Assembly: GCA_965261595.1 (NCBI GenBank)
Contig: CBDHDG010000005.1
Span: 608,001 to 672,000 of the forward strand
Length of the DNA: 64,000 nt
Origin: a bacterium
GTDB lineage: Bacteria > UBA8248 > JACPRG01 > G963555815
Direction of reading: 5' to 3'
The stretch's first letter is position 1; the number at the start of each line of letters is the position of its first letter. Below are positions 33,001 to 39,000 of this stretch, piece by piece. The position numbers were made by a program.

Positions 33001-36000
33001 CCATCAGCGCCAGGTTGATGACGATGCAGCGCTGGACGATCAGGAATAACGGCGTGTGCCCCCAGAAGGCGTCTCCGGCGTAGGGGACCGGAATCAAATG
33101 ATAAACCCCCACGAACCCCGTGGCGAGGATGAAGTTCGACACCGGTCCGGCGAGGGCGATCCACATCATGTCCCGGCGGGGGTTTTGGAGGTTCCTCACG
33201 TCCACCGGGACGGGCTTGGCCCACCCGATGAAGCGCGTGACGACGAAGACGAGCGTGCCCATCGGGTCCAGGTGTTTGAGCGGGTTCAGCGTCACCCGCC
33301 CCAGCATCCGCGCCGTCGGGTCGCCCAGGCGGTCGGCCATCCATCCGTGCGCCGCCTCGTGCACGCAGAGGGCAAGCAGCATGGCGGGCAACATGATGGC
33401 GATCTGCCGGATGACCAGATTAATGTCCATGGTTTCGGTGTCCTTGGTTCGGCCGCACGTCGGCGATAAATCGAAACCTCTTAGCAAACGCCCGCGGCAC
33501 TGTCAATTTGGAGACGGTCATTTCACCCCGTGAAGGGTCAGGAGCCGCCGGACGTAAGCGCGCTCGTGGATCTCGCCCGCCTCGATGTCCCCGTCCAGCA
33601 GGGCGTCCCGCGCGGCCGCCAGGAGCTCCCCGTACAGGGGCCCCGGTTCCACGCCCATCGCCAGCAGGTCCTTTCCCCCGATGGCCGGATTCACGTCTCG
33701 CAGATGGGTCAGGTGCAAAGAGACGCGTTTCTTGGCCCGCTGGGAGGGCGCGACCGCCAGGCTGTAGAGCAGGGTCTCGATCTTCAGGGGGTGGAGGAGC
33801 CGGTAAACGGCGCTCGGCGGGACCTCTTCCCCGGAGAGTCCGGCCAGGATGTTCACGACTTCCCGGCGGGCCTGAAGGGTGGGGTCGCATCGGCGGCCGG
33901 GCAGGGCCAGGCGGGCGCACGCGGCCTCCGCCTCCTCATCGGTGAGATCCCCGAGCAGGCCCATGAGGTAGATCCGCCAAGCCTCCATCGGCTCTTCGGG
34001 GAACAGCAGCTTGAACCAGGCGAGGGCCCGATCGATGTCTTCGAAGCGGCACCCGAGGGCGGAGGTTTCCCGGAGCCTCGGGTGGATGAACCGGAGCAGC
34101 TTCAAGTCGCCCAGGCGGGCGACGCACCGCCAGGGCTCGGGCCCGTCGAGGATGAGTCGAAGCTCGGTGAACAGGCGGCTTCCCGAAAGGCGGTCGATCA
34201 GGCTGTCGCGGACGGCATGGTCCAGGAGGGTCCGGGTTTGGGCGCCGATGGCGAATCCATACCGTTCCGAGAATCGGACGGCGCGAAAGGCGCGCGTCGG
34301 GTCCTCTACGAAACTGAGGTTGTGGAGAACGCGGAGGACCTTGTCCTTCAGGTCGCGCCGGGCGCCGAAGAAATCCAGCAATCTCCACGCCCCCTCGCCG
34401 TTCAGTTGGACGGCCATCGCGTTGATGGAGAAATCCCGCCGGGACAGGTCCGTGCGGATGTCGCTCATCTCGACGACGGGCAGCGCCGCGGGCTGTTCGT
34501 AGTATTCCACCCGGGCCGTGGCCACGTCCACCTTTCGGCCGTCGGGCAGCGTCACCACGGCGACGCCGAACCGGGGGTGGGCTTTGGAGCGTCCTCCCAT
34601 CCGCGCCGCGAGCGCCCGGGCGAGAGCGATGCCGTCGCCTTCCACCACGAGGTCCACGTCCGGGTTGTCGATGCCGAGCATCAGGTCCCGGATGATCCCG
34701 CCGACGAGGTAGACGCGGCAGCCTTGCGCCTCCGCCGTATGCGCCGCCTCCTCGAGGACCTCACGCACGGGTTCCGAGAGGCGGGCGCGGGCCAGCGTCC
34801 GCACGCTTCGCGTGTAGGGCTCGGCCCGAAGGCCTTCCGGGTTGCGCTCCTGTTGGAGGAGCCGGACGGCGTCCCCCCGGGTGATGATTCCCTTCAAGGG
34901 GGCGTGCTTCACGTCCGGATCGGTGCGGCCCAGGACGGGAATCGCCTTTTGCCGGCGGCCCAGGATCAACTCCAGGGCCCGGTCCGCCGGGGCGTCGGGC
35001 GTCAGGGTCTCGAAGTTCCGGTTCATGGAATCGGCCACGCGATCCGCCCCGACACCGTCAACGATGGCCTGCTCCACGTCCGGGCGCGTGATCAAACCGG
35101 CGACGCGGCGCCCTTCCATCACGGGCAGGGTGTTGAGGTTGTATCGGGTCATCAGGTCCCCGGCATCGCGAATCGGGTCTTCCGCCCTGACGGTCCGCAC
35201 AGGCGACGCCATGATCTCTCCGGCCTTTCGGCGGCCGCGCGTTTCCCGGTGGAGGCGCTCGATCAGCCGGTCCCGGGCTTGGAAGAGTGTCAGGTCCTTG
35301 ATGGAGGACGAGGCGGCGGAGGGATGGCCGCCTCCGCCGAAGGACGCCGCGACGGCCCCGACGTCGATCTCGGGGACGCGGCTCCGGGCGATTAATTGGA
35401 CCTTTCCTTCCAACCGAACCAGAAAGAAGAAAGCGGGCGCGTCGTGGGCGGCCTGAAACTTCTGGGCGACCAGGGCGACGTCATCCACGTACTCCTCCCG
35501 GGAGGCCGTGGCGACGGCGACGGGAACGCCCAGAACGCGAACGGACTCGGCAGACTCCATCAGCTCGTGAAGGAGGGCGACCTGGACGGCGTTCAGCTCG
35601 CGGTGCACCCAGTCGGCCACGGCCGCCGGGTCCGCTCCGCGGGAGGCGAGGAAGGCCGCCGCCTCCAGGTCCCGCAGCGTGGTGTTGACGGAGGAAAAGC
35701 TTCGCGTGTCCGCGTGAATCCCCAGGTTGAAGAGGGTGGCTTCTTCCGGGGTGATCGGAATGTCCCGCGTTCTCAGAATGTCCACCAAAATGGTTGTGGT
35801 CGCGCCGACGGGCCGGATGTCCTCGACGTCGGCCCGGAAATCCCGGACGGCCTCCGCATGGTGGTCGTACACGTGCACCGGGACGTCCGCGCGGTCGAGC
35901 AGCGGCTGAAACTCCCCGATCCGGGCCCTGGACTGGGTGTCCACGACGATGAGCCGTCCCACGGCGTCCGGTTCCACCTGGCGCGGCTTGAGGACCTGAA

Positions 36001-39000
36001 GCGCACAGCGCCCGGACCGGAGGAACTCCCGCACCGAGGATTCCTGAGAACCGGGGAAGGCCGGCGTCGCGCCGGGGTATAGCTTTTCCGCCGCCGCCAT
36101 GGCGGCCAGGCAGTCGAAGTCGGCGCTGATGTGACAGGTGATCAGGTCCATGCGCTCCGCTCGTGGCCGGAGGGGGGAAGATATCTGTTGTCCGCGGAAC
36201 CCACGGAGTCTTTCCAACCCCTTGAATATAGATTTCGGAGCGGATTCAATCAATGCGGGTCCGGCGGGGGCGCGCCCGGACGCGGGGTCGCCGGACAGGC
36301 GGAGCCGCCGGTCCGCCGGCGTTTTGGTTGAAAGGCGGGCGGGGGGGTGTTAGATTTTCATTAAAGGTTGACCCACCGATTTGCTTGTGGATTCGAGGCA
36401 CGGCATGCCCGGAAGCCGATCACTTCTGCGGAACCTCATCCTCCCGCTCTCCCTTTGCGCCGCCATCCTCCTGCCCGCTCTCTCCGGTTCGGACACCGCC
36501 AAGGAGCCGGACGGGCGGACCGTCCTCGTTCTGAACGTCGAGGGCGTCATCAATCCGGCGACGGCCGAGTACATCGTCAAGGGGCTCGCGGAGGCGAAGA
36601 CGCGGGGGGCCGAGTTGATCGTCCTGCAGTTGGATACCCCGGGCGGACTGGACACCTCCATGCGCATCATCATCAAAGCGATGATCGCCTCATCGGTTCC
36701 CGTCGCCGTGTACGTGGCCCCGGGCGGGGCGAGGGCGGCCTCGGCCGGGACCTTCATGACGATCGCGGCCCACGTGGCCGCCATGGCGCCCGGCACGAAC
36801 CTGGGCGCGGCCAGCCCGGTGGCGGTGAGCGGCGGGATGGACGAAACCATGAAGAAGAAGGTCACCAACGACGCGGCGGCCTACATCCGGTCCCTGGCGA
36901 AGAAGCACGGCCGGAACGCGGACTGGGCGGAGAAGGCGGTCCGCGACGGCGTGTCCCTCGGCGAGGGCGCGGCGCTCAACAAGGGCGTGATCGACCTGGT
37001 GGCCACCAACCTGAAGACCCTTCTGCTGGCGGTGGACGGACGCAAGGTGTCCACGCCGGCCGGCGACCGGGTCCTGCGGACGAAGGGCGCCCGGGTGGCG
37101 GTGTACGAGATGGGCGTGCGCCAGAAGCTCCTGGCCATCCTCTCCAACCCCAATCTGGCCTACATGCTCATGATGCTGGGGTTTTACGGGATCCTTTTCG
37201 AGATCATGAATCCGGGGGCCATCTTTCCCGGCGTGGTCGGGGCCATCTGCCTCATTGTGGGTTTCTACGCCCTTCAGGTGCTTCCCATCAACTATGCCGG
37301 GCTGGCCTTGATCATTCTCGGCATCGTCATGTTCATCCTGGAGGTCAACATGGTCAGCTATGGCGCCCTCAGCATCGGGGGGGCGATCGCGATGATCCTG
37401 GGGTCGGTCATGCTGGTGGACTCGCCCGCGCCGTTCCTGCGGATCTCCTACTTCGTGATCATCCCCGTGACCCTCCTGACCGCCGGTCTGTTCGTCTTCC
37501 TCCTTGGGCTCGGCCTCAAGGCCCAGCGGCGGAAACCCGTGTCCGGTTCGGAGGGTCTGGTGGACGCCACGGGCGTCGCGAAGGGGGACATCGACCTTGA
37601 AGGCAAGGTGTTTGTTCATGGAGAGCTTTGGAACGCCCATTCCGCCGAGCCGATTGCCGAAGGGGAAACGGTTCGGATTGTGGCGGTCAAGGGTCTTCGT
37701 CTCGTGGTGGTGAAGGAGGTGTCTACATGATTGGATACAACGCATTGCTCCCGATTATCGTGATCTTCGTGATCCTGATTTTGGCCAGCTCGATCAAGGT
37801 CATGCGGGAGTACGAGCGCGCGGTCGTCTTTCGGCTGGGCCGGTTTCTCAGCGCCAAGGGGCCGGGACTTTTCCTTTTGTTCCCCGTCATCGACCGGATG
37901 GTGCGGGTGAGTCTGCGGCTGGTCACCCTGGACGTTCCCTCGCAGGACATCATCACCCGGGACAACGTGACGGTGAAGGTGAACGCCGTGCTTTATTTCC
38001 GCGTTCTCGATCCCCAAAAGGCCGTCATCGAGGTGGAGGACTTCCTCTACGCGACCTCCCAGCTCGCCCAGACGACCCTGCGGAGCGTCCTCGGAAAATC
38101 GGAGCTGGACGACCTCCTGGGCGAGCGGGAGAAGATCAACAGTCAGCTCCAGGAAATCCTGGACAAGCAGACCGACCCGTGGGGCATCAAGGTCACCAAC
38201 GTCGAGATCAAGCACGTCGATCTGCCCACCGAGATGCAGCGGGCCATCGCCAAGCAGGCCGAGGCCGAGCGGGAGCGGCGGGCCAAGATCATTCACGCCG
38301 AAGGCGAGTTCCAGGCGTCGGGCCGGCTGGCCGAGGCGGCCGCCGTTGTCGGCAGAGAGCCGGCGGCGCTCCAGCTCCGCTACCTTCAAACCCTGACGGA
38401 AGTGGCGATGGAGAACAACTCGACGTTGATCTTCCCCATTCCGATGGACTTGCTCACCCCGTTCCTTCCGAGAGGGGGTCGGGAATCGGGCGGCGGAGGG
38501 AAGGAGTCCGGGGGCGAAGCCGGGGCGTGACGTGGGTGGGCTGGCCGGGGCGTGGCCGGCGCCGGACGCGCGGTCCGGAATGCCCGTCTCAGGCTTGGAG
38601 ATCGATGGCCCTGATCTCTTCCGGCCTGGGGGCGCTCAGGACGGCCAGCAGCGGCCGGTTCTCTTCGTAGGAAGAGTTCGCGGCGTCCCGGATTTTCTTG
38701 ACCTCCGGGGGCGGCTTGGGGGCGGGCAGGTCGAGGAGAAGCTGTTCTCCCGGCAGGGCCGTCGCCGTGAAGGTCGCCGCGCTGCTTGTTTGGTCTCCCG
38801 GGTGTTTTGCATGTGAATGCTTGTTCCCGGAGACAGGCGGATTCGGCCGGATGACTGTAGGTTCGGTTGTGATTATCTGAGCTTTGTAATCATTCATCGC
38901 CTTGACCCTCCTTCCATGAGGGTTTTGCCTGATCTCTTATCGGCGGCGCGCGAAATGTGATGAGAGGTTTTTTCATCCCGCCGGAGATTTGCGAGGCCGA

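Follow-up and report, generated by a model that had tools for sequence, protein, structure and literature searches.

The window considered here is a stretch of 64,000 nt, positions 608,001 to 672,000 of contig CBDHDG010000005.1 (forward strand), from the assembly GCA_965261595.1 (hereafter G000; GTDB lineage Bacteria; UBA8248; JACPRG01; G963555815), which comprises seven contigs with a completeness of 96.7%. The gene under study, encoding P0001, and its downstream neighbours are laid out as follows.

33518..36151, minus strand: P0001, an 877-aa DHH-DHHA1-CBS-CBS class II tRNA nucleotidyltransferase, open frame from ATG
35717..36145, minus strand: DHH (NrnA-like) domain, residues 3-145, with DxD, DT and DHH motifs (PF01368, E 5.2e-7)
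35258..35524, minus strand: DHHA1 domain, residues 210-298, with GGGH motif (PF02272, E 1.7e-6)
34853..35224, minus strand: CBS pair, approximately residues 310-433 (PF00571 in two stretches; PDB matches to CBS proteins at 311-433)
34331..34714, minus strand: nucleotidyltransferase head, residues 480-607, with D498, D500, D542 and RRD 571-573 (PF01743, PolyA_pol, E 1.2e-24)
34442..34522, minus strand: basic/acidic (B/A) motif and flexible loop of full length, with 27 residues between VDV and RRDF
34073..34306, minus strand: neck, residues 616-693, with the EDPTR amino-acid template at 616-620 and S-R-x3-E at 658 (Pfam, alignment)
32804..33487, minus strand: M50 site-2 protease gene directly downstream of P0001 (context)
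28330..32733, minus strand: class I W/Y tRNA synthetase (trpS-like), ileS and lspA, further downstream (context)

The frame of P0001 is open further 5', up to a TTG at 36253. Residue positions in the head were counted along the PDB-match alignment, and Pfam places PolyA_pol_RNAbd at residues 632-693. The short A-type enzyme of another genome, G041, sits in an equivalent M50-protease neighbourhood.

The PolyA_pol head with its DxD, RRD and EDxxR motifs identifies P0001 as a class II tRNA nucleotidyltransferase. Assignment to the bacterial poly(A) polymerases (PcnB) was rejected, the diagnostic region reading SKAHPRFG and TIGR01942 giving 80.3 bits against a cut-off of 305.65. An AlphaFold model of the catalytic half, computed from a single sequence, reached a pLDDT of 38.8 and was left out of the reasoning. 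A deleted flexible loop is described in published accounts as the hallmark of bacterial CC-adders; in P0001 the loop is of full length, which speaks against a CC-adder. The protein shares this loop, the B/A motif and EDxxR with the A-adders of split CC+A systems (Aquifex aeolicus AaL, Geobacter sulfurreducens, NF041569), and equally with CCA-adders. Its best NCBIfam model is the A-adding NF041569, with 764.8 bits over residues 1-869 against a cut-off of 1440.

The reading favoured here, and held to be slightly better than an even proposition, is that P0001 is the A-adding member, now orphaned, of what was ancestrally a CC+A pair. A single loss of the CC-adding gene, in the lineage ancestral to genera g1 and g4, would have left the A-adding half alone, with C74-C75 supplied by the tRNA genes themselves. 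Exonucleases would trim the tRNA precursors (RNase PH is present, and no RNase Z scores above its cut-off), and P0001 would add or repair A76 only, including on tRNA-Val-TAC and tRNA-Ala-TGC, whose genes do not encode it. It is proposed that the phylum's near-universal encoding of CCA preceded the loss and made the partner dispensable, as a permissive condition rather than a compensation.

The principal alternative, a serious contender to which somewhat less than an even chance is given, holds that P0001 is, or became, a full CCA-adding type IIa enzyme like that of Thermotoga maritima, rendering the CC-adder redundant, and that the tRNA ends merely mirror phylum-wide CCA encoding. The survey's finding had raised this precedent, and it is borne out by published accounts, in which the lone Nrn-CBS enzyme of T. 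maritima adds all of CCA in an organism with 45 CCA-encoding tRNA genes; subclass IIa is the name given to this case and is described as related to the A-adders, and Nrn and CBS domains are reported on both CCA- and A-adders. P0001 has the same Nrn(DHH)-CBS-nucleotidyltransferase layout and, as an A-adder-related sequence and the only class II enzyme found in its genome, the same solitary state. Its best PDB match is likewise the T. maritima enzyme core (3h37, 238.7 bits versus 193.1 for the Aquifex A-adder), with a nearly identical loop. The missed NF041569 cut-off might be thought to favour this alternative as well; however, the paired enzymes of two relatives, G002 and G003, miss it too (836 and 854 bits), and the miss is therefore uninformative on activity.

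Other signatures are no more decisive. The A-adder motif sRxxxExxxhh is fitted by S-R-L-F-T-E-L-R-L-I-L in P0001, whose S is replaced by P in the T. maritima enzyme (TmCCA); of 121 aligned proteins, 42 have E at this position, 31 have K and 10 have S. Toh 2009 reportedly describes a neck contact, Glu185-Arg236, that allows C addition. The residue corresponding to Glu185 of TmCCA is a serine in P0001 (Ser628, paired with Arg679), family orthologues carry S, A or V at this first site, and E/R occurs in 104 of the 121 aligned proteins. Neither the NF041569 cut-off nor the sRxxxE motif nor the neck pair separates A-adding from CCA-adding enzymes on the basis of sequence. Maturation of the 3' end may also differ: RNase Z is described as cutting after CCA in T. 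maritima, whereas in G000 RNase PH is above its cut-off and TIGR02651 RNase Z below.

That P0001 is the single class II tRNA nucleotidyltransferase of G000, as had been claimed, is upheld by four types of search. The PF01743 profile matched P0001 alone; tblastn with ten relatives' ORFs (CC-type, short A-type, canonical and proteobacterial-type) found solely P0001 below E 0.1; and two custom HMMs, one of them based solely on CC-type partners, were searched with --max against all six-frame ORFs of at least 40 aa and gave next-best E values of 0.53 and 0.84. It is very improbable that a CC-type partner is nonetheless present in an assembly gap or beyond detection through divergence: known partners do score poorly on PF01743 (E 5e-12 to 4e-4) and the assembly is in several contigs and incomplete, which leaves the earlier caution about a gap some force, but the partner-specific searches were empty, the site syntenic to the partner locus is assembled, contiguous and occupied by other genes with no remnant, and the G003 partner as query found nothing in G001, G004 or the closed, one-contig G006.

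Among six relatives from the family of G000 (f1), G002 and G003 carry an intact loop-less partner of the CC-adding type, which in G005 is interrupted by an in-frame TAG arising from a single TGG-to-TAG change. The spacing from VDV to RRDF is 13 residues in these three partners versus 27 in P0001, a deletion of 14 residues. Normal dN/dS between G002 and G005 (0.26 for the partner, 0.24 for the long enzyme) shows that the partner is under purifying selection, and G005 was rejected as a further loss, the one stop being recent or a sequence error. The survey's finding that sister genomes pair the P0001 type with a second, shorter enzyme thus stands for G002 and G003 and, with its stop, for G005. 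It does not extend to G004, whose second match exceeds the NF008137 cut-off as a multifunctional Cca of the proteobacterial type; it lies on a contig of 2.5 kb with 59.5% GC (47-52% at five other G004 loci) and is probably a contaminant. No partner was found in G001 or in the closed G006; the earlier claim was that it is missing from a same-genus genome and from a closed relative.

The flanks of the partner site adjoin each other in G004 and G006. The g1+g4 clade is recovered with 93/91 on the enzyme tree and 97/94 on the EF-G tree (G004 left out), and is left undecided by a fusA-like tree. These data support the earlier claim of loss: the CC-type partner is ancestral in the family and was lost in the G000 lineage; the trees suggest a single loss in the ancestor of g1 and g4, and the four partner-less genomes probably represent one event. 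A-adders have been recognised by the presence of a CC-adding enzyme within the same genome (PMC2910056); such an enzyme accompanies the P0001 orthologues of G002 and G003, and none was found beside P0001, which sets it apart from the split-system A-adders. These paired orthologues are 60-72% identical to P0001 over the catalytic half (72% for G003), and their continued pairing with a conserved CC-type partner argues against the type IIa alternative. Unlike in T. maritima, the lone state in G000 is of recent origin, and sister members of its family still have both enzymes.

ARAGORN returned 52 tRNA rows and a tmRNA in G000. After four poor rows were dropped (Lys-TTT on C4, Glu-TTC on C5, Pro-CGG on C6, Glu-CTC on C7), there are 48 credible tRNA genes, 45 ending in CCA (among them the Sec tRNA, read by hand with an 8-bp stem) and three in CC: Val-TAC (CCC), Ala-TGC (CCG) and an atypical 95-nt Ile-TAT (CCT). 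The previous count of 47, with 44 CCA and three CC, was therefore one CCA short, and its point that A-addition alone would be enough holds for all 48. Among the contigs listed from four public runs at the tRNA-Ala locus, none of the G000 organism bridges the 3' end, and CCG is the reading of the assembly; RNA runs offered only small shares and were left unused. No convincing non-CC tRNA gene was found in G000 (48 genes), G001 (32), G004 (40) or G006 (46, after three non-CC tRNA-like extras had been discounted on stem quality and redundancy).

Taken as evidence for the orphan state, the fact that every tRNA gene encodes at least CC nonetheless proved non-discriminating. The sister family f2, in the same phylum, has canonical enzymes of about 440-500 aa without DHH-CBS, carrying ERxxxE, with approximately 22-32% identity to P0001 and putatively CCA-adding by their motifs. 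One uniform tRNA-end pattern gave non-CC rates of 2/102 in partner-less genomes versus 11/391 in canonical-enzyme genomes (Fisher p=1.0), an equality that counts against the orphan A-adder; 380 of the 391 f2 hits encode at least CC, and the tRNA genes of the phylum, like those of G000, nearly all encode CCA. Genomes with zero non-CC tRNA genes make up 8 of 16 in f2 and 19 of 55 in another phylum; G008, with a canonical enzyme, has CCA in 39/39, and G003, with an intact partner, at least CC in 41/41. Less stringent tRNA patterns, which matched the end repeat of an IS, were not retained.

CC-only ends account for 6/173 pattern hits in f1 (three non-tRNA rows dropped) versus 2/391 in f2 (p=0.012), an enrichment that favours the orphan reading over type IIa; set against non-CC ends by the same method, the ratios are 6:5 and 2:11 (p=0.08). 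The sharper contrast of 18:1 versus 2:11 (p=7e-6) was rejected as biased, f1 rows having been hand-filtered and f2 rows not, with several ends shared by descent. Since 12 of the 18 f1 CC-only ends lie in the partner-gene carriers G002 and G005, the excess does not track partner loss. RNase P pairing could be a general reason for CC retention; it found no support as such, CC-only ends being outnumbered by non-CC ends 13 to 221 in the other phylum (55 genomes) and 2 to 11 in f2. The rarity in the other phylum further indicates that no other forces generally preserve CC there.

At least 25% of tRNA ends are non-CC in 13/55 genomes sampled in that phylum, yet the 7 of 301 with a single weak PF01743 match, the enzyme type having been checked in two and the other five being fragmented assemblies, have CCA in 96 of 97 listed rows, the remaining row not being tRNA-like. 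This too argues for the orphan A-adder and against type IIa. In G134 of that phylum, where the contig equals the genome in length, the long enzyme occurs by itself and CCA is encoded in 19/19.

We tentatively propose, with confidence a little below even, that an orphan A-adder without any CC-adding activity is viable once all needed tRNA genes encode C74-C75, that this state has at least two independent origins (the Nitrospinota-related clade of G000, and G134), and that its signature is ends that may drift to CCN without losing CC. If true, the orphan A-adder would add an arrangement in which CC comes from the genome and A from the enzyme; earlier literature may already list lone enzymes of the Nrn-CBS kind. 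What restricts A-adders to one nucleotide is left unsettled by a 2014 review, and family f1 offers a natural experiment on this limit. Should the G003 and G000 enzymes both prove A-only, the orphan state would follow; should they differ, the switch to CCA addition would lie in a few substitutions. Either outcome would be informative, and neither would amount to a new kind of system.

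The long class II tRNA nucleotidyltransferase of the genome under study (G000), designated P0001, is encoded in the window as follows.

33518-36151, minus strand: P0001, 877 aa; DHH and DHHA1 domains, a pair of CBS stretches, then the head and neck of a class II nucleotidyltransferase

The top NCBIfam model for P0001 is that of the A-adding enzymes (NF041569, 764.8 bits; cut-off of 1440 not reached), a cut-off likewise missed by the paired long-enzyme orthologues of two relatives, G002 and G003. Two among its closest named homologues carry a Nitrospinota label, and its gene lies upstream of those for an M50 protease, a W/Y tRNA synthetase, ileS and lspA. 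P0001 would on balance be an A-adder left without its CC-adding partner, a reading preferred because recent descent from a paired enzyme calls for no new activity. The same consideration weighs against its being a CCA-adder of subclass IIa, the name for Thermotoga-like enzymes in the available excerpts of PMC4538823 and PMC7014341; this alternative keeps a lesser, tentative probability, given that, among solved structures, the CCA-adding core from T. maritima scores highest (238.7 bits, versus 193.1 and 186 for the Aquifex A-adder). The T. maritima enzyme bears Nrn and CBS domains, which, as far as the excerpts of PMC13514080 and PMC8208693 go, are found on CCA-adders and A-adders alike and are dispensable for activity, and that organism has 45 CCA-encoding tRNAs (excerpts of PMC7479834 and PMC5143459). 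All Thermodesulfobacteriota sequences in a 2026 preprint were subfunctionalised, according to its available portion (10.64898/2026.05.29.728689). No description of an A-adder without a partner was found in the literature searched, which took in few subscription papers.

Among the six other members of the family of G000 (f1), an intact, HD-containing short partner was found in G002 and G003. From the third carboxylate to the RD motif there are 13 intervening residues in the partners of G002, G003 and G005 versus 27 in P0001, such loop deletion being the published hallmark of CC-adders (excerpts of PMC3925840, PMC7014341 and PMC2910056). The G005 partner is the same gene as in G002 and G003 with one TGG-to-TAG stop; a further loss was rejected, since dN/dS between G002 and G005 is 0.257 for the partner, close to the 0.242 of the long enzyme, so that the stop is recent or an error. 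The second match in G004 was also rejected, being a Cca of proteobacterial type, carried by a 2.5-kb contig whose GC content is foreign, and G004 is thus counted as partner-less. With the G003 protein as query, no partner was found in G001 or the closed genome G006, upholding the survey's finding of a second, shorter enzyme in sister genomes that is missing from G000 and a closed relative. Purifying selection acts on the partners of G002 and G005 (L034:6725-8266; L033:7133-8773), although the catalytic DxD is replaced by ExD and RRD by GRD in them; most CC-only tRNA ends (CC followed by another base) belong to these two genomes, many of them reading CCCA. The long enzyme of G004 (L035:6754-9087; P0011 in its 762-aa form) retains DHH with no DHHA1 or CBS match. 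In G041, of another family in the same class, the position equivalent to that of P0001 is occupied by an A-type enzyme that is short and lacks DHH-CBS; a canonical-like enzyme whose loop is shortened to 20 residues and which has LRD for RRD is also present (L359:3923-5299, L360:3661-4956) and is possibly a separately derived CC-adder.

A profile search with PF01743 gave one match in G000. As the partners in relatives score weakly on this profile, G000 was searched directly with partner sequences: tblastn with 10 ORFs of relatives returned nothing but the P0001 gene at E < 0.1, and two profile HMMs against all six-frame ORFs of at least 40 aa gave next-best E values of 0.53 and 0.84, so that P0001 is, as first claimed, the only class II enzyme found; no search aimed at a class I enzyme was made. 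The G003 partner is flanked by a methyltransferase and a fusA-like gene; both flanks are assembled on contig C7 of G000, with DUF2283, DUF4258, an unknown ORF and UbiD and no partner remnant found between them, and they directly adjoin in G004 and G006. In view of this site and these searches, a partner present in G000 but missed is very improbable; the loss is real, as is the gene content, and both have good support. The partner is present in the deeper genus g2 and in g3, and genera g1 and g4 cluster on the enzyme tree (93/91) and the EF-G tree (97/94, G004 left out), the fusA-like tree giving no resolution of this grouping; one loss is therefore the simplest reading, and the four partner-less f1 genomes are not independent. 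The fusA-like gene of G000 (C7:189615-191678, plus strand) is cut to a 582-aa frame by an in-frame TAA near 191361; the G001 orthologue is intact.

ARAGORN reported 52 tRNA rows in G000, of which, with 4 poor rows dropped and the Sec end read by hand, 45 end in CCA and 3 in CC followed by a base other than A. Val-TAC ends in CCC, taken as real since it is common to G001, G002 and G005; Ala-TGC ends in CCG, read in this assembly alone; and an atypical tRNA-like gene was located as follows.

C6:63141-63235, plus strand, outside the window: tRNA-like Ile (anticodon TAT), 95 nt, long variable arm, G73, end CCT, between transposase-like ORFs

The flanking ORFs, which we take to be IS3-like and IS1-like, enclose a gene that is probably not needed; a long variable arm with G73 resembles serine identity, so that the gene, if expressed, could misread AUA. 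A repeat with a T-loop-like motif, present in about 30 copies at the end of a transposase ORF, presumably of IS1380 (e.g. C4:900190-900295), confounds loose tRNA patterns in G000.

tRNA gene ends in relatives, from ARAGORN on loci around Rfam matches (CCA / CC-only / without CC; genes, Rfam rows)
G001: 31/1/0; 32, 33
G002: 41/5/1; 47, 47
G003: 40/1/0; 41, 42
G004: 40/0/0; 40, 41
G005: 42/7/0; 49, 50
G006: 45/1/3; 49, 49
G011 (control): 43/1/1; 45, 45
G008 (control): 39/0/0; 39, 39
G041 (control): 35/0/1; 36, 44

Of the three G006 rows without CC, two are Asn-like copies whose acceptor stems are unpaired and the third is a weak Pro-like match (35.9 bits); normal Asn and Pro-TGG genes ending in CCA are also present. 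The Asn-like copies (L361, L362; C1:552992 and 2936988) resemble each other, and their D, anticodon and T arms are intact; one, probably mobile, has neighbouring ORFs with 82-99% identity to G000 sequences.

A uniform tRNA pattern, capturing about half of tRNAs, was run on 80 genomes and gave 1865 matches, 1628 with CC and 24 CC-only. Ends without CC were as frequent in partner-less f1 (2/102) as in the sister family f2 with canonical enzymes (11/391, p=1.0), as the CCA-adder alternative would have it, and were absent from 8 of 16 f2 genomes and 19 of 55 genomes of another phylum. CC-only ends amounted to 6/173 in f1 (3 non-tRNA rows dropped) versus 2/391 in f2 (p=0.012, kin not being independent), and to 13 versus 221 without CC in the other phylum (55 genomes); yet 12 of the 18 CC-only genes of f1 belong to G002 and G005, both carrying the partner gene. 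One match without CC in each of these two was absent from the loci examined by ARAGORN. The survey had reasoned from the all-CC ends that A-addition alone would suffice. The CC-only enrichment speaks for A-only function and the equal rate without CC against it, and the pattern, compatible with such a function, mostly reflects a phylum-wide state. RNase PH was above cut-off in 10/10 genomes and RNase Z (TIGR02651) in 0/10, f2 controls included in both; exonucleolytic trimming would favour encoded CCA phylum-wide, whatever the enzyme. Hosts of E. coli delta-cca are used routinely (excerpts of PMC11784652), so that relying on encoded CCA is in itself no surprise.

Among 301 genomes of the same other phylum, PF01743 gave one weak match in 7, one strong match in 12 and two to five matches in 282. 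The tRNA rows listed for the 7, under a pattern that skipped matches with C at position 77, end in CCA in 96 of 97 cases, the remaining row not being tRNA-like; set against the others, of which 18/53 had zero ends without CC and 29/53 at most one, this gave p=0.001 and p=0.035, respectively. The long enzyme was confirmed in G048 and G134 only; the other five genomes are fragmented and could have a further gene in an assembly gap. G134, apparently one contig, which equals the whole genome in length, is an independent candidate for the lone-long-enzyme state. Its enzyme (L409, C1:322000-330000) has 777 aa and a degenerate DHH region in which no DHH triad was seen.
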